From NCBI RefSeq assembly GCF_003018255.1, contig NZ_CP027440.1: 64,000 nt of DNA; one strand, 5' to 3'. Under the pieces are notes generated by a model. That model did no database searches. It had not been told where the DNA came from and saw only the letters and a program-made list of their open reading frames with translations. Shown piece by piece: positions 23,039 to 50,660 of the stretch (position 1 is the first letter of the stretch; each line of letters starts with the position of its first letter). Source of the DNA: Escherichia coli. GTDB taxonomy: Bacteria; Pseudomonadota; Gammaproteobacteria; Enterobacterales; Enterobacteriaceae. The position numbers and the translations under genes are program-made.

Positions 23039-23246
23039 TGTTCTCTTCTTCAGGTTAAAAAATAAGGCGCAACGAAGATAACAAACCACCGCGTTTAATG
23101 AAATGAGCAGCCTCTCCCTGACGCAAATTTTGCACAAAAAATAGGCTTTAGTGATTTGTTTTTGTTCAAAATCATGCCGAATCCGTGATCGGGGTAAAAA
23201 AAAGGTTGCATGAAAACGCGAGCAGAGTATAGTGCGCATCCACGGA

Positions 23247-23323
<77 letters not shown>

Positions 23324-23356
23324 ATTAAAATTTGATGAAGTAAAGCAGTACGGTGA

Positions 23357-23433
<77 letters not shown>

Positions 23434-23466
23434 ATCAAAATTTGATGAAATAAAGCAGTACGGTGA

Positions 23467-23529
<63 letters not shown>

Positions 23530-23543
<14 letters not shown>

Positions 23544-23570
23544 ATTTATTAGAATGCTGACAAACCGCAA
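23530..23570 (+). repeat. Direct repeat copy 1 (tRNA 3' end plus 27 bp flank); att-like
   Basis: ggcccccgcaaccaatttattagaatgctgacaaaccgcaa recurs identically at 50661-50701. Confidence 0.85.
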
Positions 23571-36601: not shown

Positions 36602-36980
36602 TTTCTTTTTTTGTTCAAATAGTTACTCCGAAGAAAAAATAGAGATAATAAACATTAATAAACCAATATATATAGGTACCAATCAATCAGATAAGGTGCT
36701 TATTACTGCGTGTAATCATTGGGTGCTTAATTCTAGAGATATTATAGACATATTCAATCTAAGTATAAAGCATGATGATTATGGCGAAATAAACAGAATG
36801 TATTATTGGTTACCTTGTGAAATTAGAGGGAGACTAATGTATGACGGAATAGAATGGAGTTTTGTTATCAATGCTGCTGCAACAGCAATGTGGATGAGCA
36901 ATGATAAAGAGATTTACTGGGGATGCAATAAAAAAGCATGCGATAATTTCTTTTTATTACCATATGATGGGATGAGGTAA
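36543..36980 (+). CDS. Candidate cognate immunity protein (periplasmic, signal peptide)
   Basis: Overlaps the 3' end of the amidase gene. N-terminus MIKLVIKQKVKALISIVLINFFFCSNSYS looks like a Sec signal peptide; Cys-rich; AT-rich. Start among ATG 36531/36537/36543 is uncertain. Confidence 0.5.
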   Translation: MIKLVIKQKVKALISIVLINFFFCSNSYSEEKIEIININKPIYIGTNQSDKVLITACNHWVLNSRDIIDIFNLSIKHDDYGEINRMYYWLPCEIRGRLMYDGIEWSFVINAAATAMWMSNDKEIYWGCNKKACDNFFLLPYDGMR

Positions 36981-37085: not shown

Positions 37086-38300
37086 ATGCCCATCCGACTT
37101 AATACCATTCCCGACGCAGAACCCTATCCCGCACCGCCAGCCCGCATTAAATGGCTGTCAGCCTTATTACTGATGCTGTCTGTTGGTGTGGCAATAACCT
37201 CATTATTCGCCAGCGATGAACTGGCAAAAAACGGCCCATATTTCTGGGGGCTGGCCTGCGGCGTGCCTGCTTTTATCTGGTCACTGGTCGGTTCGGTGCG
37301 CTGGCTGGTATTTGTCACTCAACATATTCGTGCCGATGCCTGGAATCAACGTCGCGAAGAAGTCATTTTGCAGGAAACACGGCGGGGACGACGGGCGTTG
37401 CAGATACTCAGTTTTTCCGTACAAACCGCGCTGAATGGTGATTCCGTCGCAGAAACTACAACAGCATTTCTGGCGCGTCATCAGGTGTTGAATACTTACG
37501 CTGATTTGCGCGGAGAAGATACCGTGCGTCGCAGTGTCATTCCCGTATTAACCAATAAACCGGTTACCGGGCGTTTATCCGAAATTATTTCCCGCCTTTT
37601 TATTGATATCAGACCGCAATTGTTTCTGCTGCCCCCTGATTTTCATATCAACGTACTACTGGAAATTGATGCGCCGCTTTCAGGGGCCTCCGTGAGAACT
37701 ATCTGGCAGGACGAATGGCAAAAAGCCGGACTCCCCGAAGCCCGTCTGTTTTCTGCCCCGGAGCCGGGGCTGGCCGCCGTGGACGACTGGCTGGACAACT
37801 TTATTCAGGAAAAGGCCGTACTGCTGGTGATTTCCGTGCGTCTGGAACCGAAGAACCCGGAACGGACGGCAGAATCCGCCACCGCGCTGTTGCTGGCAAA
37901 CCGACTGACGCAAACCGCGCTGACGCCGCTGGCCCTGCTGCATCGTCCTGAACGTATCACAGATACGGAGATGATGGCGTCAGGCATTGCACAGGCGCTG
38001 GACTGGATGCCGGTGCAGCCAGATGCCATATCCGGCATGTGGACAGTCGAACTGAACAGGGAACAGCGCGCCTCGCTGCTGTCATCTAACCAGCCGTTTA
38101 CTCAGGAAGCCCTGATGTACGAGCTGGATGCCTTTCTGGGGTGCTCCGGACCGGCAGCGCCGTGGCTGTCCGTCGCTGCGGCAACGCTGGCGGCAATACA
38201 ATCACAACACCCCCAACTGACGCTCAGCGGCGTTCAGAACGGGCATTATTCATGGGCGACCATGGTGTCGCCATTCGTTTCCCCTCAGGAGGCATCATAG
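37086..38300 (+). CDS. Uncharacterised T6SS-cluster inner-membrane protein (two N-terminal TM helices plus cytoplasmic domain)
   Basis: 404 aa, GC-rich like the core genes. TM segments WLSALLLMLSVGVAITSLF and FWGLACGVPAFIWSLVGSVRWLVFV. Stop TAG overlaps the tssM GTG start. Confidence 0.6.
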   Translation: MPIRLNTIPDAEPYPAPPARIKWLSALLLMLSVGVAITSLFASDELAKNGPYFWGLACGVPAFIWSLVGSVRWLVFVTQHIRADAWNQRREEVILQETRRGRRALQILSFSVQTALNGDSVAETTTAFLARHQVLNTYADLRGEDTVRRSVIPVLTNKPVTGRLSEIISRLFIDIRPQLFLLPPDFHINVLLEIDAPLSGASVRTIWQDEWQKAGLPEARLFSAPEPGLAAVDDWLDNFIQEKAVLLVISVRLEPKNPERTAESATALLLANRLTQTALTPLALLHRPERITDTEMMASGIAQALDWMPVQPDAISGMWTVELNREQRASLLSSNQPFTQEALMYELDAFLGCSGPAAPWLSVAAATLAAIQSQHPQLTLSGVQNGHYSWATMVSPFVSPQEAS

Positions 38301-41300
38301 TGGTTCCGGGATTAAACCGTCTCCGGCCCCGTTCGGTTTCAGGGCCTGCCATCGTCATGACCGTGGCCGTTGTGGTTGCGCTTTGCACGTTTATTCACCG
38401 TAAACCGGCATTGCTGGGCGTTGAACCGGGTAGTTCACAGCAAATGTACTGGATGGCTGGCGTGATTGCCGCAGGTGTGGTCTTTCTGATTATCATGGGG
38501 GTTTATCATCTGCTGAACCGCCACGCTGCCGTACAGAGCTTTGAACTCCACAGACAGCTTGCCGCCGGAGATGACTATCGGGCGGTGACGACAAAGAAAG
38601 CCGACAGCCGTCATCCGGCAATGGTGGAACTCGCCGCCTTCCTGCGCGACCGCTACGGCCCATTCTGGCGGCGTAAAATCCGCCTGCTGCTGGTGACCGG
38701 CGAGCCTGAACAGGCAGAGGCCATCGCGCCGGGGCTGACCGGGCAACACTGGCTGGAGGGCGACCACACGGTGCTGATATATGGCGGCAGGCCATCTACA
38801 GAGCCTGATGTCGCGCTACTGACCGCCTTAAAAAAACTGCGCCGCAGCCGTCCGCTGGACGGCATCATCTGGCCGCTGACAGAAGAACAGAGCCGCCAGA
38901 CGGCGCAACTCGACAAAGGCTGGCGCGAACTGATAAACGGCGGTAAGCGACTCGGTTTTCAGGCTCCACTCTATTTGTGGCAGGTCTGTGACAACGGTGA
39001 TTATCAGACCGGACGCCCCCTGCAAAGCGTCGGCTGCCTGCTGTCGGAACGCTGTACCCCGGAACAACTGGCTGCAATGCTGGAAGCACAAACCCTGCCG
39101 CTGACGGAACAGGGCATGTCGCAGCTGCTTACCGATAACCGCCATGATTTCCTGCTGCGTCTGGCCCATACCCTTGCAGAGCGGGGTATCGCTCACTGGC
39201 AAAGTATCCTGAAACCGCTGCTGGCAGGCGGCGCATTTTCCTCCCTGCGCCTGCGTGGCCTGATGTTCAGCCCGCCGCTTACCGCCGTACCGGAAGCCGC
39301 ACCTCATGCGTGGCTGCCGTCACCGGTCTGGGCGGGCGTGACCGGCGATAACGCGCGGGGTCGCACGGTGGGCTTTCCGTGGCTGCGTATCACGCTGATG
39401 TCTGCTGTCTGCGTACTGGCGATATGGGGGGCCGGAATGACGACCTCGTTCTTCGCCAACCGCGCACTTGTTCAGGAAACCAGCATCCAGACGGCGCGTG
39501 CACTCGATATCCGTCTGCCGCTGTCTGAACAACTGGTGGCGCTGCATACCCTGCAGGGTGAACTGGAGCGCCTGCAGTACCGTATCCGGGAGGGTGCGCC
39601 GTGGTATCAGCGTTTTGGCCTTGAACGTAACCAGCAACTGCTCGCCGCCGCCTTTCCCGGCTATGCGCAGGCGGCAAACCGGCTGGTGCGCGACGTGGCC
39701 GTTGACCATCTGCAACAGCAACTGAATGCCTTTGTCGCGCTGCCGCCCAATAGTCCGCAGCGTACCGCCACCGGCGAACAGCGCTATAAGCAGCTTAAGG
39801 CATTGCTGATGACTTCCCGCCCGGAAAAGGCCGACGCTGCCTTTTTCAGTACCACGCTGATGGCAGATGACCTGCGCTATGCAGGTGTACCGGAAGGTGT
39901 GCGTCAGAGCGTGTTGCCGTCACTGCTGACCTTCTGGATGGCGAATCTGCCGGAACACCCACAGTGGAAAACTTCGCCGCCACCGGAACTGACCGGCGCA
40001 GTGCGCAAAATCCTGCTGCGCCAGATTGGTGTGCGCAATGCCGAAAACACTCTCTACCAGAACGTACTGCAACAGGTGTCCCGCAACTACGCCGATATGA
40101 CGCTGGCGGACATGACCGGGGATACGCTCACCGAATCTCTTTTCAGTACGGAGCAGACGGTGCCGGGGATGTTTACCCGTCAGGCGTGGGAAGGACAGGT
40201 CAGGGAAGCCATCGAGCAGGTGGTGACGGCGCGGCGCGAGGAAATCGACTGGGTACTCAGCGACCGCCAGCAGGATACCTCTGCGGATATCTCGCCGGAT
40301 ATGCTGCGTAACCGTCTCACTTCACGCTACTTTACCGACTTTGCCGGAAGCTGGCTGGCGTTTCTCAACAGCATTCGCTGGAAAAAGGAAGACTCGCTCT
40401 CCGGCATTCTCGACCAGTTGACGCTGATGGCCGATGCCCGCCAGTCACCGCTGATTGCGCTGACAGACACCCTCGCGTGGCAGGCGGCGGCTGGCAGGGA
40501 AAACCGTGGCCTGTCAGACTCGCTGGCGAAATCGGCACAGGAACTGTTTAACGGCAAGGAGAAAACGCCGCAGCAATCCCGTGAAGGCGACGTGCCTGTC
40601 GGGCCGCTGGATAAAACCTTCGCGCCGCTGCTGCGGTTGCTTGGCGATAAGGCAGGAGGCGGCGACAGCCAGCTGAGCCTGCAGACCTACCTCACCCGAG
40701 TCACCCGCGTGCGCCTCAAACTGCAACAGGTGACCAACGCCCCTGACCCGCAGGAGATGACCCAGCAACTGGCGCAGACGGTCTTACAAGGCAAAACCGT
40801 TGACCTTACCGACACCCGCGACTATGGCAGCCTGATAGCCGCCAGTCTGGGTGAAGAGTGGAGTGGCTTCGGTCAGGCGCTGTTCGTCCGCCCGGTGGAG
40901 CAGTCATGGCGGCAGGTGCTGACGCCTGCGGCAGACAGCCTGAACCGCCAGTGGCAGCGGGCGATTGTCAGCCACTGGGATCAGGACTTCGCTGGTCGCT
41001 ACCCGTTCAAAGCCTCACAAAACGATGCCTCCCTCCCCCTGCTGGCGCAGTACCTGCGCGATGACGGGCGCATCAACCAGTTTATCGCCGCCAATCTTTC
41101 CGGCGTACTGAAACGTGAAGGCCGCTACTGGGTGGCTGACGCCATGAACACGCAGGGGCTGACAGTCAATCCGGACTTTATTCGCGCCCTGAACCGCCTG
41201 CGCGATGTGGCCGATACCGCCTTTGCCAGCGGCGATGCAGGGATACATTTTGAACTGCGGGCAAAACCGGCGCGCGACGTGATGAAGACGCATCTGGTGA

Positions 41301-41683
41301 TTGACGGGCAGGAGCTGGAATATTTCAACCAGAAGGAACGCTGGCAGCGTTTTAACTGGCCGGATGAACAGTGGCAACCCGGCGCATCGCTGAGCTGGAC
41401 CAGTACGCAGGCGATGGAACGCATACTGGCGGATTATCGGGGAAGCTGGAGCCTTATTCGCCTGCTGGAACAGGCGCAGGTGACACCGGTGGACAGCAGT
41501 ACCTTTAAAGTGGTGTGGAAAGCGCAGGACGGCCTGCCGCTGAATTACCTGCTGCGGGTTGAACAGGGTAAAGGGCCGCTGGCGCTGCTGGAACTGAAAA
41601 ACTTCCGCCTGCCGGGACAGGTGTTCCTGACCGGCAGGAGTATGAAGGATGCGGAAGAATACGGGGAAGACGCCGATGAGTGA
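38300..41683 (+). CDS. tssM: T6SS membrane-complex protein TssM (IcmF-like)
   Basis: Start placed at GTG 38300 with AGGAGG at 38287-38292, giving 1127 aa with the canonical TM1-TM2-cytoplasmic-TM3-periplasmic layout. The track's ATG 38141 would overlap the upstream gene by 160 nt. Confidence 0.85.
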   Translation: MVPGLNRLRPRSVSGPAIVMTVAVVVALCTFIHRKPALLGVEPGSSQQMYWMAGVIAAGVVFLIIMGVYHLLNRHAAVQSFELHRQLAAGDDYRAVTTKKADSRHPAMVELAAFLRDRYGPFWRRKIRLLLVTGEPEQAEAIAPGLTGQHWLEGDHTVLIYGGRPSTEPDVALLTALKKLRRSRPLDGIIWPLTEEQSRQTAQLDKGWRELINGGKRLGFQAPLYLWQVCDNGDYQTGRPLQSVGCLLSERCTPEQLAAMLEAQTLPLTEQGMSQLLTDNRHDFLLRLAHTLAERGIAHWQSILKPLLAGGAFSSLRLRGLMFSPPLTAVPEAAPHAWLPSPVWAGVTGDNARGRTVGFPWLRITLMSAVCVLAIWGAGMTTSFFANRALVQETSIQTARALDIRLPLSEQLVALHTLQGELERLQYRIREGAPWYQRFGLERNQQLLAAAFPGYAQAANRLVRDVAVDHLQQQLNAFVALPPNSPQRTATGEQRYKQLKALLMTSRPEKADAAFFSTTLMADDLRYAGVPEGVRQSVLPSLLTFWMANLPEHPQWKTSPPPELTGAVRKILLRQIGVRNAENTLYQNVLQQVSRNYADMTLADMTGDTLTESLFSTEQTVPGMFTRQAWEGQVREAIEQVVTARREEIDWVLSDRQQDTSADISPDMLRNRLTSRYFTDFAGSWLAFLNSIRWKKEDSLSGILDQLTLMADARQSPLIALTDTLAWQAAAGRENRGLSDSLAKSAQELFNGKEKTPQQSREGDVPVGPLDKTFAPLLRLLGDKAGGGDSQLSLQTYLTRVTRVRLKLQQVTNAPDPQEMTQQLAQTVLQGKTVDLTDTRDYGSLIAASLGEEWSGFGQALFVRPVEQSWRQVLTPAADSLNRQWQRAIVSHWDQDFAGRYPFKASQNDASLPLLAQYLRDDGRINQFIAANLSGVLKREGRYWVADAMNTQGLTVNPDFIRALNRLRDVADTAFASGDAGIHFELRAKPARDVMKTHLVIDGQELEYFNQKERWQRFNWPDEQWQPGASLSWTSTQAMERILADYRGSWSLIRLLEQAQVTPVDSSTFKVVWKAQDGLPLNYLLRVEQGKGPLALLELKNFRLPGQVFLTGRSMKDAEEYGEDADE

Positions 41684-43286
41684 ACTGTTGCAAAAGCTGA
41701 CCCGTAGCTGTTTTGCCGACCGGGACGCACTGGACTCGGCGCGAACACAGGCGGCGCTGTGGCAGACATGGCTGCTGCCGGTGACGGCAGATACGCCGGT
41801 CGGGGAAGACCCCGGCTACCACGACGATTTCCTGCGTATCCGCGACGAGATGAACAAACTTTCCGGCGCGGATACGGACCTTATCTGCCAGCTTGCCGAA
41901 TCCCTGCTGCTGACGCAGGCAAAAGACGTGCGCATCGCCACTTACTATATCTGGGCGCGACTGCACCGCGATGGCGAACGCGGACTGGCTGAGGGGCTGG
42001 CGCTGTTAGCCGGACTGGTGGAACGCTTCGGTGCGCAACTGCTGCCCTCGCGCCCGGCAAGCCGAAAAATGGCGCTGGAGTGGCTGGCAGGGGAAAAGAT
42101 GCTCGACAGCCTTGCCCGCTACCCGGAAGTGGCAAAAGAGGATTTTGCGAACATTGTTGCCGCTCTTAATCAACTGACGGTTTCCTTCACTGCATGGCCC
42201 GAAGACCAGCATTCCCCCTCCCTGATGCCGCTGATTAACGCGCTGGAATCACGTCTGGCGCAGTCGGGTGGGATGAACGCGGTGGTGCCGCAGAACAGCA
42301 GCGGCGTTCCGGCACCGTCTTCCCCGGTGGATGCGCCACAGGTACAGACCATCACTTCCGGGCGCGACCTGCTCGACCAGGCGAAAGTGCTGGCCCGTTA
42401 TCTGAACGAACAGCCGCAGGGCTGGCTTTCAGCACACCGGCTGATGAAAACCCTGCGCTGGGACACGGTGCATGAACTGCCGCCGGATGTGGACGGAAAA
42501 ACCCGGCTGGCCCCGCCGCGCACAGAATCACGCAACCAGCTTAAGCGGCTGTATGCTCAGCAGAACTGGACGGAACTGCTGGAGCAGGCCGACCTGATGT
42601 TCAGCACCGGCGTCAGCCATTTCTGGCTGGACATTCAGTGGTATCTGCATCAGGCGCTGACTAAGGCGGGCGCACCGTGGGACAGGTGGACAGCGGTTAT
42701 CCGTCAGGACCTGGCGTTACTACTGGAACGCCTGCCGGGGCTGGAAAATCTGGCATGGAACGACGGCACGCCGTTCGCCGATGAGTTGACGCGCAACTGG
42801 ATAGCGCAGCAGGTCATGATGCGGGAAGACGGCGCATGGCTTGCGGGGAAAGCCGCTGTACCGACAGACGACGCCACAAACGACGTACTGGCGCTGGAGC
42901 CGGAAGCGCTGGAGATGGCAGACAGTCAGGGCGTGGAAGCGGCGCTGGGCTGGATACAGACCCGTCCGGGCATCACCACGGCACGCCAGCGCCTGTTATT
43001 GCGACTGCTGATGGCGCGGGTGGCGGAACAGTACGGTAAAAACGAGATGGCGCTCCTGCTGCTGGAAGAACTGGATATCGCCGCACAGGGGCTGACGCTG
43101 ACGCAGTGGGAGCCGGACCTGCTGTTTGAGGTAAAAGCCCGACAGCTGAAACAGCTGCGCCTGCGGGCGCACCGCTATGCGGATAAAGCCCTGCTGAACC
43201 GAAAAATGGAAATCCTGCTGGGAACGCTGGTGACAATAGATCCGGTACGGGCAGCGGTATTGTGTGATACGCAACATAAGGACTGA
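41676..43286 (+). CDS. tssA: T6SS protein TssA (ImpA N-terminal domain)
   Basis: MSELLQKLTRSCFADRDALDSARTQAALWQTWLLPVTADTPVGEDPGYHDDFLRIRDEM... (ImpA_N signature). ATG 41676 overlaps the tssM stop (ATGAGTGA). Confidence 0.8.
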   Translation: MSELLQKLTRSCFADRDALDSARTQAALWQTWLLPVTADTPVGEDPGYHDDFLRIRDEMNKLSGADTDLICQLAESLLLTQAKDVRIATYYIWARLHRDGERGLAEGLALLAGLVERFGAQLLPSRPASRKMALEWLAGEKMLDSLARYPEVAKEDFANIVAALNQLTVSFTAWPEDQHSPSLMPLINALESRLAQSGGMNAVVPQNSSGVPAPSSPVDAPQVQTITSGRDLLDQAKVLARYLNEQPQGWLSAHRLMKTLRWDTVHELPPDVDGKTRLAPPRTESRNQLKRLYAQQNWTELLEQADLMFSTGVSHFWLDIQWYLHQALTKAGAPWDRWTAVIRQDLALLLERLPGLENLAWNDGTPFADELTRNWIAQQVMMREDGAWLAGKAAVPTDDATNDVLALEPEALEMADSQGVEAALGWIQTRPGITTARQRLLLRLLMARVAEQYGKNEMALLLLEELDIAAQGLTLTQWEPDLLFEVKARQLKQLRLRAHRYADKALLNRKMEILLGTLVTIDPVRAAVLCDTQHKD

Positions 43287-44698
43287 TGGCAATGGGAACA
43301 GGCTACTTTCTGGTCAGGGGGGACAAAACCACCTGCGGCGGCAAAATTATTGAAGGCGCGGACGACCATACGATCATGGGTATCCCGCAGGCGCGGGATA
43401 TGGACCGGGTCACCTGCGGCAGATATCCGGGAATGTTTATTATTGTGGGCGGCGTTCCTGAAACAGATATTCACGGCAGGCTGATGGCGGGGACGCTGGA
43501 CAGTCAGAGCAGTTGCCCGTGTAAGGCACGGTTTATTGCGTCAATGATGGATGATACGTATGAGACGGATGACGGGGAAAGTGAAGCGGAACAACATGCG
43601 CAGTCGGCGAAAAAGGATCTGACTTCTGGTTCTGATTCATCCTCTGATGATGTAAAACTGGATTACAGAATTAAATTATCAGGTAATAAGATACTGACGC
43701 CACTGAATATACCTGATTATAAAGAAATGATTAGCGGTGGTAGTACGAAGAATACAGAAAAAATAGATTTTACCATCACAAATAAAGGCGATGAGGCTGA
43801 AGCGCTTTCTCTGGAAGTGCTTGATGGTAATGAAGTGATTTATAGTGAACGGCAGACCGGTAAATATTGTGATAAGGGAGAGCATGCCTGGCAATGGGAT
43901 GGCTACAGTAATCAAGGCATACTGGATACAACTAAGATAAAAAGCAAATCACTACTCGTAAGACTGATTGCTTTATGTGGTGATATGATGATAAAAGTTG
44001 ATTATCCATTGAAAAATGCTGCGAAAGAAGAAGAGTGGGTTGATGTAAAAGTTGACAGAAATAATAAAGTGGTCGATATAACATGGAGATTATCTGTTAA
44101 GGATAGCGGTACAAAAGGCAGTAACCCTGAGTTATCGCCAATACCTTATAGCGATTTAGTTAGTCTTACTAAAAATGGCGTGGAGTTTTACTGGTCACGA
44201 AATGGAAGTCGCGGCGGGGGAATTGGTGGTAATATCGTTACAGCGATTGGGGTTTTTAAAGTAAATGTAAAGGCTGAGATAAATATTACTCCATCTATGC
44301 GAACTTTTGATTTGATATCATCGTTAGATCCAGATATGCAGTCGTCGGTAAGTCTTTTGGGGTTTGAAAAAATATACCATAACTATGGTGGCTATTATAA
44401 TAACAGCAAGGATGAAATAAAGGCTCTTCTATATAGTAATGAAAGATATAAATGGGATAGTGCTCATGAGATGGGACATAAAGTTATGGATAAATATGGT
44501 TCTGAATCATGGACACATAAGGGGACATCCACGCGGGGTCAAAGTACCATCCCTAATACTCCAATGCCATCTTCAGGAGAGATTGATATAATGAAATATG
44601 CAGATAGCTATGCACCTGATAGATATAAGAGATTGGTCGCGGCAGATGAAGATGTTCAGGCATTGATCTGGTTGAGCAGGGTGAGTTTTAATGATTAG
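43286..44698 (+). CDS. PAAR-domain protein with C-terminal HExxH (zincin-like) putative toxin domain; candidate specialised T6SS effector
   Basis: N-terminal about 85 aa is PAAR-like (GDKTTCGG...GIPQARDMDRVTCG...SSCPCKA) and GC-rich. The remainder is AT-rich and contains SAHEMGHKV. Start overlaps the tssA stop (TGATG). Confidence 0.7.
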   Translation: MAMGTGYFLVRGDKTTCGGKIIEGADDHTIMGIPQARDMDRVTCGRYPGMFIIVGGVPETDIHGRLMAGTLDSQSSCPCKARFIASMMDDTYETDDGESEAEQHAQSAKKDLTSGSDSSSDDVKLDYRIKLSGNKILTPLNIPDYKEMISGGSTKNTEKIDFTITNKGDEAEALSLEVLDGNEVIYSERQTGKYCDKGEHAWQWDGYSNQGILDTTKIKSKSLLVRLIALCGDMMIKVDYPLKNAAKEEEWVDVKVDRNNKVVDITWRLSVKDSGTKGSNPELSPIPYSDLVSLTKNGVEFYWSRNGSRGGGIGGNIVTAIGVFKVNVKAEINITPSMRTFDLISSLDPDMQSSVSLLGFEKIYHNYGGYYNNSKDEIKALLYSNERYKWDSAHEMGHKVMDKYGSESWTHKGTSTRGQSTIPNTPMPSSGEIDIMKYADSYAPDRYKRLVAADEDVQALIWLSRVSFND

Positions 44699-44713
44699 AA
44701 TAATTGTTTTTTA

Positions 44714-45115
44714 TTGTTTTTTTTGAGTGGGTGTACTTCACAAAAAGAGTATTCCAATATAGTCAGGATTGAGAATAGATGCTCCTCAGATATCGATGTC
44801 TTTATTCAGGGATATGTTTCCGGTTCTACGCTGATTTATCAGCATAATATACACTTGCCAGTTGGTGATAGTGATGTATTAGTATATTTTTCCACGGCAG
44901 ATATTGATGATGGTTTTAAATATGAGGGGGCATTCATGATATATAAAGATAGCCGCGGTGAATTGGATTATCCATTCACCATTTCATTGTCAGGGCGCGA
45001 AAAAAAATTTGGGAAGAATGACTTAATTAGATTATCACGAGATATTTCAACAAAAGACGACAGAAAATACGGAGTTATAAGATATATAATCGACAGTCAG
45101 GAAATTTGCCCGTGA
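44714..45115 (+). CDS. Candidate immunity lipoprotein for the PAAR-HExxH protein (5' end disrupted or phase-variable at a T8 tract)
   Basis: Track ORF starts at TTG 44714 (FFLSGCTSQ..., lipobox LSGC without a signal peptide). ATG 44691 in another frame encodes MIRIIVFYCFF then stops; one extra T in the T8 run (44717-44724) would fuse it into a canonical lipoprotein signal peptide. Confidence 0.5.
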   Translation: MFFLSGCTSQKEYSNIVRIENRCSSDIDVFIQGYVSGSTLIYQHNIHLPVGDSDVLVYFSTADIDDGFKYEGAFMIYKDSRGELDYPFTISLSGREKKFGKNDLIRLSRDISTKDDRKYGVIRYIIDSQEICP

Positions 45116-45324
45116 TGTTTTAAGTTATTCGTTCACAATTATTAATTATTGCCTATTATGTAAGGTAAATTTAATTTGGTTCAGAAAAGACAAGAATACA
45201 TCATTATTAAAATCAATAAGTCAGCAACTATCCATAATATATTCACATAGAATAAATTTAACTATGATGTTACTTCTACACCTGCATGATATTCACTTTC
45301 AATGAAAGGAAGATAATCCCTCCG

Positions 45325-47085
45325 ATGGACGATCTAACCCAACGCTACTACGAAGCCGAAATGCGCTACCTGCGTGAAGCGGGGAAAGAATTTGCGCAGG
45401 CTTACCCCGACCGCGCCGCGATGCTCAATCTTGATAAACCCGGCGCACGCGATCCCTATGTGGAGCGCCTGTTCGAAGGCTTCGCTTTTTTAATGGGTCG
45501 CCTGCGTGAAAAGCTGGATGACGACCTGCCCGAACTGACCGAGGGGCTGGTCAGCCTGCTGTGGCCTCACTACCTGCGAACCATCCCGTCACTTTCCGTG
45601 GTTGAACTGTCGACAGATCACCGGCAGATGAAGCAGAGCGAAACACTGAGTAATTTTCAGGTATTGTCGCGTCCTGTTGGCGAGCGCAGAACCCGCTGTG
45701 TCTACAGTGCTACGCGGGATATCACGCTGCATCCGCTGGCGCTGCCGGACGTGTCATTGCAATATGAACCGGACGGGCGCTCGGTTATCCGTCTGCGCTT
45801 TGAATGCGGCCCGCTGGTTGGTGACTGGTCACAGATCGATCTATCCCGTTTGCCGCTCTATCTCAATGCCGACAGCCCGGTGGCCTGTGCGCTGCACCGG
45901 GCTTTAACGCTTGGCACCCAGCAGTTCTGGCTGCGTCTGCCGGGGCAGGAACGCCGTGTGCTGGACGCGCACTTTTCCCCGATGGGTTTTGATGACAATG
46001 ACCGACTGTGGCCAAAAGGCGAGTCGGCGTTCAGCGGCTACCAGTTGCTGCTGGAGTATTTCACCTTCCGCGAAAAGTTTATGTTTGTGGCGCTGAACGG
46101 GCTGGAGAACGTCATCTGGCCGGAAGGGATGAGCGGCTTTGAGATTGACGTGGTGCTGAGCGAGAACTGGCCTCACGACCTGCCGTTTGACAGCGATAAT
46201 ATCCGTCTGCACTGCGTGCCGGTCATCAACCTGTTCCCGCTGGAAGCCGATCCGTTACACCTTTCGCCACTGGAAAACGAATTTCTGCTGCGCCCGATGC
46301 GTATTCAGGACGGGCATACCGAGATTTATTCCGTCGACAACATTATTTCTTCGCGCCATACCGGCAGTCAGGCGTATGTCCCGTTTTCCAGCTTTCGTCA
46401 CCGGGGCGGGATGCTGCGCCACGATGCACCGGAACGCTATTACCATACGCGGGTTAAGCGCGGCCCTTCCGGCCTGCATGATACCTGGCTGATTCTGGGC
46501 GGCGATGCGTTTGATTCCGACCGGATGCTGGAGGATGAAACGCTCTCTTTAAGCCTGACCGGCACTAACGGACAGCTTCCCCGTAAGGCTTTACAGAGCA
46601 CGCTGCTTGATACGCCAGTTCATGCCTCACAGAACGTCCTGCGGGTGCGCAACCTGTGCGCCCCGACGCAGCCCTGTTATCCCCCGGCGCGTGACCGCTT
46701 CCACTGGCGGGTGCTCAGCCACCTCGGTTCTAACTTTCTTTCAATGATGGATAACGCCGAAATTCTGCGCGGCACGCTGGCGCTGTACGACTGGACCGAA
46801 AGCGAGATGAACCGCCGCCGTCTGTCGGCGATTGTCGACGTTCAGCACAGCCTGATACAGCGTTTTGAAAGAGGCTTTCTGCTGCGTGGCGTGGATATTC
46901 AGGTGACGCTGGACAGCACCGGCTTTGCCGGAGAGGGTGATATCACGCTGTTTGGCGAACTGCTGCACCGCTTCTTTGCACTGTATGCCGATATCCACTT
47001 ATTCACTCAACTGACCTTAATTCTGCAACCCACAGGAAAGTGCCTGCAATGGACAGAGCATCACAGCCAGCGCGTACCGGGCTGA
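45325..47085 (+). CDS. tssF: T6SS baseplate protein TssF
   Basis: MDDLTQRYYEAEMRYLREAGKEFAQAYPDRAAMLNL... (typical TssF N-terminus), 586 aa from ATG 45325 with AAGGAAG upstream; the track begins at 45286. Confidence 0.88.
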   Translation: MDDLTQRYYEAEMRYLREAGKEFAQAYPDRAAMLNLDKPGARDPYVERLFEGFAFLMGRLREKLDDDLPELTEGLVSLLWPHYLRTIPSLSVVELSTDHRQMKQSETLSNFQVLSRPVGERRTRCVYSATRDITLHPLALPDVSLQYEPDGRSVIRLRFECGPLVGDWSQIDLSRLPLYLNADSPVACALHRALTLGTQQFWLRLPGQERRVLDAHFSPMGFDDNDRLWPKGESAFSGYQLLLEYFTFREKFMFVALNGLENVIWPEGMSGFEIDVVLSENWPHDLPFDSDNIRLHCVPVINLFPLEADPLHLSPLENEFLLRPMRIQDGHTEIYSVDNIISSRHTGSQAYVPFSSFRHRGGMLRHDAPERYYHTRVKRGPSGLHDTWLILGGDAFDSDRMLEDETLSLSLTGTNGQLPRKALQSTLLDTPVHASQNVLRVRNLCAPTQPCYPPARDRFHWRVLSHLGSNFLSMMDNAEILRGTLALYDWTESEMNRRRLSAIVDVQHSLIQRFERGFLLRGVDIQVTLDSTGFAGEGDITLFGELLHRFFALYADIHLFTQLTLILQPTGKCLQWTEHHSQRVPG

Positions 47086-50453: not shown

Positions 50454-50660
50454 ACATCGGGGGATTTATGTACCAATAAGGGATATGTGACCTTGCCATT
50501 TTTTAAAATGGAGTCTCTGTGTACAAAAAAGAGAGGAACAGGCCATTCGATCTACTCGTTGATTCACATCAGATAATGAGTGTATATTTCGGTAGATAGC
50601 TTGGGTTCGGGAACAGTGAATACCTTAAGTTTCAAAAGATTGGATTAACCTCTTGACTGT

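Follow-up and report, generated by a model that had tools for sequence, protein, structure and literature searches.

A frameshifted putative immunity lipoprotein gene beside an intact PAAR-linked effector in a type VI secretion island of Escherichia coli

The effector gene and its interrupted partner

The stretch of DNA considered here, the window, comprises 64,000 nucleotides of the Escherichia coli chromosome (RefSeq assembly GCF_003018255.1, contig NZ_CP027440.1) and includes a type VI secretion system (T6SS) island. Within this island a gene for a PAAR-linked effector with an HExxH motif is followed directly by a small gene of lipoprotein type, the putative immunity gene of the effector, and in the window the reading frame of this small gene is interrupted within its signal-peptide coding region (Table 1). 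An earlier note, made from the sequence alone, had described this interruption and had offered three options for it, namely a gene switched off by slippage, a phase-variable gene, or a homopolymer miscounted in the assembly. The interruption itself is confirmed, and the first of these options is the best supported: it is probable that the window carries a genuine loss-of-function mutation, generated by slipped-strand mispairing, in an immunity gene that is prone to mutation and under weak selection.

The ATG at 44691-93 falls within the final codons of the effector gene, in an 8-nucleotide (nt) overlap with the effector stop codon, and is preceded by GGGTGAG. It is the authentic start of the immunity gene, at which the annotated coding sequence of 141 amino acids (aa) in strain 104, WP_000619309.1, also begins. 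From this ATG the window reads ATG ATT AGA ATA ATT GTT TTT TAT TGT TTT TTT TGA, which encodes MIRIIVFYCFF and ends, just as had been described, at a TGA whose first base is the last T of a run of eight (T8; other runs are named likewise). The frame that carries the lipobox (L-S-G-C, 44723-44734, with the codon for the lipidated cysteine, TGT, at 44732-34) can be started only at the TTG codons at 44714 and 44723, and the 133-aa open reading frame (ORF) found there has no signal peptide, as the earlier note had also recognised, its n-region being absent and its h-region reduced to FF. A bacterial lipoprotein combines an n-region of positive charge, a hydrophobic h-region and a lipobox of the form [LVI][ASTVI][GAS]C in one ORF, a combination that the window allele lacks; the predicted lipoprotein family assignment is one that suits the gene and not the window allele. 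The one-base loss also places the immunity gene body in the frame of the effector, with the TAG and five codons (NNCFL) between them, and amber read-through at this TAG would fuse the effector and the immunity protein in the window.

Intact alleles encode M-I-R followed by IIVFLLFF and LSGC. All full-length homologues carry a signal peptide and a lipobox, the latter reading LAGC, LAGC and LHGC at 70% (Salmonella), 65% (an E. coli sister allele) and 53% identity, respectively, and C15, C31, C140 and a C-terminal block, FGKxDLI..YxIDSxxICP, are invariant in homologues of 53-70% identity. In the E. coli and Salmonella loci these homologues always stand, with an 8-nt overlap, behind a PAAR gene of 472-477 aa in the interval between tssA and tssF. 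By position the two genes are a T6SS effector-immunity pair, the small gene lying directly 3' of the PAAR toxin gene, within the T6SS cluster, and being co-inherited with it. The immunity protein itself has no family match in Pfam (precomputed), NCBIfam, PADLOC or the sequences of the PDB.

The effector comprises an N-terminal PAAR domain, a disordered linker, immunoglobulin-like beta-sandwiches and a C-terminal HExxH zinc-metallopeptidase-like domain, and H394-E395-x-x-H398 together with about 30 other residues is invariant across 24 effector homologues, down to 33% identity. PAAR alone is returned by a Pfam scan of the effector, comparison with PDB sequences gave no match, and neither DUF4157 nor the VgrG2b C-terminal family was detected when the whole effector and a 16-member C-terminal alignment were scanned with Pfam. 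A profile of the C-terminal domain matched metalloproteases in the PDB weakly (E 0.08 or higher), and the structural model of this domain resembles the adamalysin/ADAM metzincins. An AlphaFold2 (AF2) model of the C-terminal part alone was poor (predicted local distance difference test score, pLDDT, 50) and was not used. The invariant HExxH and the modelled metzincin-like fold suggest that the effector is toxic, and context and fold together point to the small gene as its cognate immunity gene. This combination of a metzincin-like PAAR effector and a lipoprotein partner matches no curated family, and the literature searched holds no description of the pair or of its frameshifts.

The site of the lesion and the possibility of a miscount

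The ancestral state of the gene is apparent from other genomes. Among the 5,426 complete E. coli genomes, 79 contain a 1-kb region covering the locus, in every case with an identity of at least 99.5% and with no copy identical to that of the window. The intact start, as found in strain 104, reads ATG ATT AGA ATA ATT GTT TTT TTA TTG TTT TTT TTG AGT GGG TGT, an arrangement of T7-ATTG-T8 that opens a 141-aa lipoprotein beginning MIRIIVFLLFFLSGC. Exact matches to a 92-nt probe over the tracts place T7-ATTG-T8 in 77 of the 79 genomes; the remaining two, JNE23-011 and JNE112863, are T7/T7, and the 91-nt T6/T8 version of the window matches none of the 79 exactly. Of 21 draft loci in which the PAAR, amidase or TssM protein is identical to that of the window, 17 have T7/T8, three T7/T7 and one T7/T9; all four metagenome contigs are T7/T8, and the first run is T7 in each of the 25 intact draft or metagenome loci examined.

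Since T8 is the usual length of the second run in 77 of the 79 genomes, the missing T sits in the upstream run at 44707-44712, and not in the T8 run in which the earlier note had placed it. Adding a T to the T8 run does, as that note had stated, rejoin the frame and yield MIRIIVFYCFFLSGCTSQKEYSN..., but the natural N-terminus is MIRIIVFLLFFLSGC and not the proposed MIRIIVFYCFFLSGC: the T9-repaired protein is absent among about 15 billion proteins, and the T7-restored window protein occurs verbatim on 471 contigs. T9 was rejected as the ancestral state on these grounds, and the comparison of T-run lengths in orthologous loci that had been suggested as a check gives T8 as the standard, with the one real T7/T9 allele (locus L020) itself out of frame. 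A clone carrying T6/T8 was sought through the exact 86-aa product, through the PAAR, amidase and TssM proteins and by a pattern scan of metagenomes, and none was found; a scan of species representatives gave no match for T6/T8 either. All relatives recovered by these look-ups are at least 11 single-nucleotide polymorphisms (SNPs) from the window.

That T6/T8 occurs in none of the 79 complete genomes, four metagenome contigs and about 30 draft loci is compatible with a miscount, in which a strain with T7-ATTG-T8, and hence with an unbroken gene, would have been given a consensus one T short. The frequency of the T7-restored protein on public contigs points the same way, and loss of the immunity gene while the T6SS and the effector are intact sits awkwardly with the biology. 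Against this, the assembly shows little sign of such errors. Over 48.5 kb the window and its nearest complete relative are 99.27% identical, with 347 mismatches and eight one-base insertions or deletions (indels), and the other homopolymer differences, once polarised with further loci, are either shared with the close relatives of the window or private to the other genome. No homopolymer length private to the window was found in 72 other runs of at least 6 nt (19 of them at least 7 nt) over 48 kb. The draft loci with the exact PAAR, amidase or TssM protein of the window differ from it by 11-20 SNPs per 11-12 kb, and their gaps relative to it consist of this T plus, in some, tract changes of their own. 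The pattern of indels and homopolymers among the relatives therefore indicates that the assembly is not noisy in homopolymers. Equivalent frameshifts (T7/T7, T7/T9 and 11-bp changes) moreover recur in independent assemblies, and such alleles therefore exist and persist. The miscount that the earlier note had raised is thus unlikely, though it deserves to be kept in mind, and a genuine mutation is favoured over it.

Recurrent frameshift alleles and the state of the island

The window allele belongs to a wider pattern, in which the immunity ORF is broken in 16 of the 79 complete genomes. Variants of the A8 run further downstream account for frameshifts in 14 of the 79 (A9 in 11, A10 in two and A7 in one), and the corresponding truncated products are found on 422 (A9), 259 (A7) and 28 (A10) contigs in NCBI, ENA and Logan; the two intact alleles are found on 1,000 or more and on 471. 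With truncated products on hundreds of public contigs, the variation is real and not the artefact of a few long-read assemblies. Changes in the A run cut the protein at about residue 106, with loss of the most conserved C-terminal block and Cys140. At the upstream site the 11-bp unit ATTGTTTTTTT, of which intact alleles have two copies, is present three times in one locus (L010) and once in another (L013), and T7/T7 alleles occur in five further loci. Three separate assemblies combine T7/T7 with a change of the lipobox cysteine to arginine, the kind of second hit that dead genes typically acquire. On two sub-backgrounds, genomes with A9 have A8 sisters from which they differ by 0-1 SNP in 12 kb; A9 must therefore have had two or more origins, and a single clonal event was rejected. 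The 65%-identical sister allele, known from 827 genomes, also has an A8 run, which is altered in about three of 60 sampled genomes. The effector gene is free of frameshifts in every locus with annotation examined.

Tract lengths thus differ in both directions among strains (T6, T7 and T9; A7, A9 and A10; one and three copies of the unit), and the gene is clearly prone to slippage across strains. Such a pattern raises the possibility of a phase-variable contingency locus, in which the T and A tracts would be kept for reversible ON/OFF immunity by slipped-strand mispairing. Three tracts and an 11-nt tandem repeat are packed into a gene of 425 nt. Under a first-order Markov model with the composition of the gene, one or more runs of at least 8 nt are expected with P = 0.105 and two or more (two being observed) with P = 0.0056, and the 64-kb window holds just seven runs of this length. 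An 8-nt T run recurs in the signal-peptide region of alleles of 55-70% identity, an A8 run is present in the 65% sister, and some genomes differ by a tract change and by nothing else in 12 kb. The tracts are nevertheless only 7-8 nt and do not exceed the length of about 9 at which A/T runs begin to slip markedly or to be avoided by selection (PMC1088944), and TTT (Phe) and AAA (Lys) codons are expected in a gene of 35% guanine plus cytosine (GC). The lipobox second hits on frameshifted alleles signify decay rather than switching, the A8 run of the sister allele is seldom altered, and immunity switched off while the effector is on would bring no obvious benefit. Phase variation is for these reasons regarded as very unlikely.

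The persistence of broken alleles may be understood from the state of the secretion system. An 11-bp non-homopolymer deletion in tssH, annotated as 'frameshifted', was seen in four of the loci compared and is present in 63 complete E. coli genomes. All 60 listed genomes with this deletion carry the present effector allele, and most of the 79 therefore have the tssH frameshift; the T6SS is probably dead in most strains with this effector allele. Of the immunity genes broken in the A run, 13 of 14 are in tssH-deleted genomes, the exception being APEC O2-211. In E. coli E5 (NZ_CP104521.1) an IS5-like element lies inside the effector, and decay of the converse kind is seen in two Salmonella loci, in which the immunity gene is intact and the PAAR effector is either uncalled or split (376 + 115 aa). 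Fragmented T6SS genes have also been described in E. coli lineages in a large survey (PMC12282107). The secretion system of the main lineage is thus in decay as well, and weak selection on the system is presumably the reason that broken immunity alleles persist.

The island of the window adjoins three tRNA-Met genes and lies between mltA and amiC/argA. Its genes follow the order tssB, tssC, tssK, tssL, a gene of the OmpA family, hcp, tssH, vgrG, an amidase effector pair, tssM, tssA, the PAAR gene, the small ORF, tssF and tssG. Positions 43400-45300 form a low-GC islet (0.33-0.45, compared with about 0.6 in the flanks) that spans the immunity gene as well as the toxin-coding part of its neighbour, and the 5' part of the PAAR gene matches the T6SS core in GC content. 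This contrast inside one gene is consistent with a swapped-in cassette of toxin and immunity gene.

Table 1. Coordinates of the features discussed, in positions of the window.
Feature	Position	Strand	Remarks
Three tandem tRNA-Met genes	23245-23546		Period of about 110 nt; left border of the T6SS island; metV-type insertion site
tssH (ClpV)	30697-33342		Intact in the window
Second effector-immunity pair	35867-36980		3' of vgrG; Amidase_2 effector (244 aa here) and small ORF with signal peptide
tssM	38141-41683		
tssA	41649-43286		
PAAR-linked effector gene	43286..44698	+	470 aa (468 from second ATG); stop TAG 44696-98; intact
Truncated leader ORF MIRIIVFYCFF*	44691..44726	+	Stop TGA 44724-26
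Slippage hot spot	44703..44724	+	Intact form: two tandem 11-nt units ATTGTTTTTTT and one T (T7-ATTG-T8)
T6 run	44707-44712	+	Actual lesion (T7 in intact alleles)
Immunity gene body	44714..45115	+	133 codons from TTG 44714, beginning MFFLSGCTSQ
T8 run	44717-44724	+	Wild-type length
A8 run	45000-45007	+	Codons GAA AAA AAA; second hot spot for frameshifts, hit more often than the first; unaltered in the window
tssF	45286-47085		

Several further observations concern the neighbouring genes. The amidase effector pair shows, as a further sign of decay, homopolymer polymorphism like that of the PAAR immunity gene, among others in four of the loci compared. An A7 versus A6 difference at 36300 shortens the amidase effector in JNE112863, a T7 versus T8 difference at 36606 breaks the signal peptide of the immunity protein of this pair in three loci, and the 244-aa and 217-aa forms of the amidase effector are one gap apart. 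In the spacer that separates the start codon of the amidase effector from its ribosome-binding site there is an A7 versus A8 polymorphism at 35860, which is common to the two closest relatives of the window and is therefore real. A one-base insertion private to the window is found at 50509 (AAAATGGAG compared with AAAAGGAG); it is intergenic, after a gene with a VasL domain, and is not a homopolymer change.

Interpretation and comparison with known systems

The events by which the window allele came about can be reconstructed as follows. The intact 141-aa lipoprotein would be exported and lipidated at Cys15, would probably form a C31-C140 disulfide in the periplasm, and would there bind and neutralise the incoming effector, for which the periplasm is the presumed site of action. 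One T would then have been lost from the T7 run coding for Val6-Phe7-Leu8 of the signal peptide, within the two-copy ATTGTTTTTTT repeat of which the first copy in the window is now one T short, most likely through slipped-strand mispairing as the DNA was replicated. Reading from the authentic ATG now stops after 11 codons, and the body of the gene can be started solely at a TTG, with no signal peptide to direct it; the allele should therefore be null or, at best, a strong hypomorph. In the VgrG2b/PA0261 pair the immunity protein no longer protects once its signal peptide is removed (PMC6899460), and it is by analogy with that pair that the frame break in the signal peptide is taken to abolish protection, so that protection has presumably been lost in the window strain. 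The window allele would then be one, private to this strain, of the many slippage alleles that have arisen independently in this gene and are tolerated under weak selection.

A number of considerations weigh against this account. The T6/T8 allele is a singleton, seen in no other assembly compared, and a one-base miscount is possible in a window that is known from its assembled consensus alone. The immunity and toxin functions are deduced from context and fold. The T6SS core genes and the effector of the window look intact, and the argument from a dead system is therefore not directly applicable to the window itself. An active effector should make a null allele of its immunity gene costly, and in the lineage of the window such an allele can be tolerated only if the system is silent, if the cost is low or if there is some leaky rescue. 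Low-level rescue on the adjacent U8 run is possible, and 'null' is then perhaps too strong a term.

Rescue of this kind is suggested by the broken frame itself, in which UGU UUU UUU UGA presents a perfect slippery heptamer followed at once by a stop codon, and from which a -1 shift enters the lipobox frame exactly. If a U were added by RNA polymerase, or if the ribosome slipped by -1 on U_UUU_UUU, the product would be MIRIIVFYCFFLSGC..., and enough lipoprotein might be made to protect the cell; this would account for a frameshift tolerated beside an intact effector. On runs of eight A transcriptional slippage can yield full-length product at about a tenth (PMC1088944), and compensatory frameshifting at homopolymer indels has been documented at low level (PMC5009743). 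The out-of-frame arrangement is, however, not conserved, with the gene in frame across these tracts in 77 of the 79 complete genomes as well as in 25 loci from drafts or metagenomes, and the next 86 nt hold no RNA structure stronger than that of shuffled sequence (z = 0.54). The predicted leader places Tyr-Cys in its hydrophobic core, the T9 protein is unrecorded, and no more than a few per cent of product is to be expected. Rescue sufficient for protection is accordingly improbable. A related and similarly doubtful idea is that of slippage-tuned immunity, in which homopolymers in the codons of signal peptide and body would make immunity heritably unstable while the U8 or A8-10 runs leaked a few per cent of in-frame product through slippage of polymerase or ribosome. 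Were this so, self-protection would be graded rather than all-or-none among strains, and sub-populations would be open to killing by kin, or the leak would be a step toward disarming the system.

A genuine slipped-strand loss of function thus stays the probable explanation, and as such it is ordinary gene decay, a strain-specific lesion at a spot that breaks repeatedly, and not a new mechanism. The gene in the window is best annotated as a frameshifted immunity lipoprotein pseudogene with its lesion in the T7 run; calling it a 133-aa protein, or a fragment of 86 aa, should be avoided. Roughly a fifth of the complete E. coli genomes with this effector have lost the immunity frame, with the toxin unframeshifted in the loci examined, and most of the genomes with broken immunity also carry the frameshifted tssH. 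The locus offers a countable example of decay in a T6SS island, in which mutation-prone, AT-rich accessory genes go first, and it is a reminder for genome surveys that the presence of an effector does not imply a functional system and functional immunity.

Comparison with better known systems is instructive at three levels. Compensatory slippage at apoB (A8), at the thymidine kinase gene of herpes simplex virus (HSV; G7/G8) and at endosymbiont poly-A tracts provides a parallel to the arrangement in the window, in that a one-base deletion stands beside an 8-nt run, a slip at that run would restore the frame and a stop codon follows the run directly. Unlike those cases, the arrangement here is not conserved and no stimulator was found, and the likeness is one of sequence potential.

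For the gene pair as such, the closest characterised analogue is the Tpe/Tpi class (the C-terminal domain of Pseudomonas aeruginosa VgrG2b with PA0261, and Acinetobacter baylyi Tpe1-Tpi1), the immunity protein of which is periplasmic, is a lipoprotein in the Enterobacteriaceae and depends on disulfide formation (PMC6899460). The two share an HExxH zinc-metallopeptidase toxin carried on a T6SS spike component, an envelope-targeted immunity gene directly downstream, and conserved cysteines in the immunity protein that suggest periplasmic disulfides. They differ in that the carrier here is PAAR and theirs is VgrG, in that the present pair is without a DUF4157 match and is known from sequence and model, and in that the modelled toxin is metzincin-like where theirs are thermolysin-like enzymes.

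With respect to the mode of inactivation, the tracts of 7-8 nt are shorter than those of classical phase-variable genes. The present gene is set apart from slipped-strand pseudogenes in general by its nature as an immunity gene whose partner toxin is intact, and it resembles them in its single-base gains and losses in A/T runs, in the copy changes of a short non-triplet repeat, and in the accumulation of many independent alleles with second hits.

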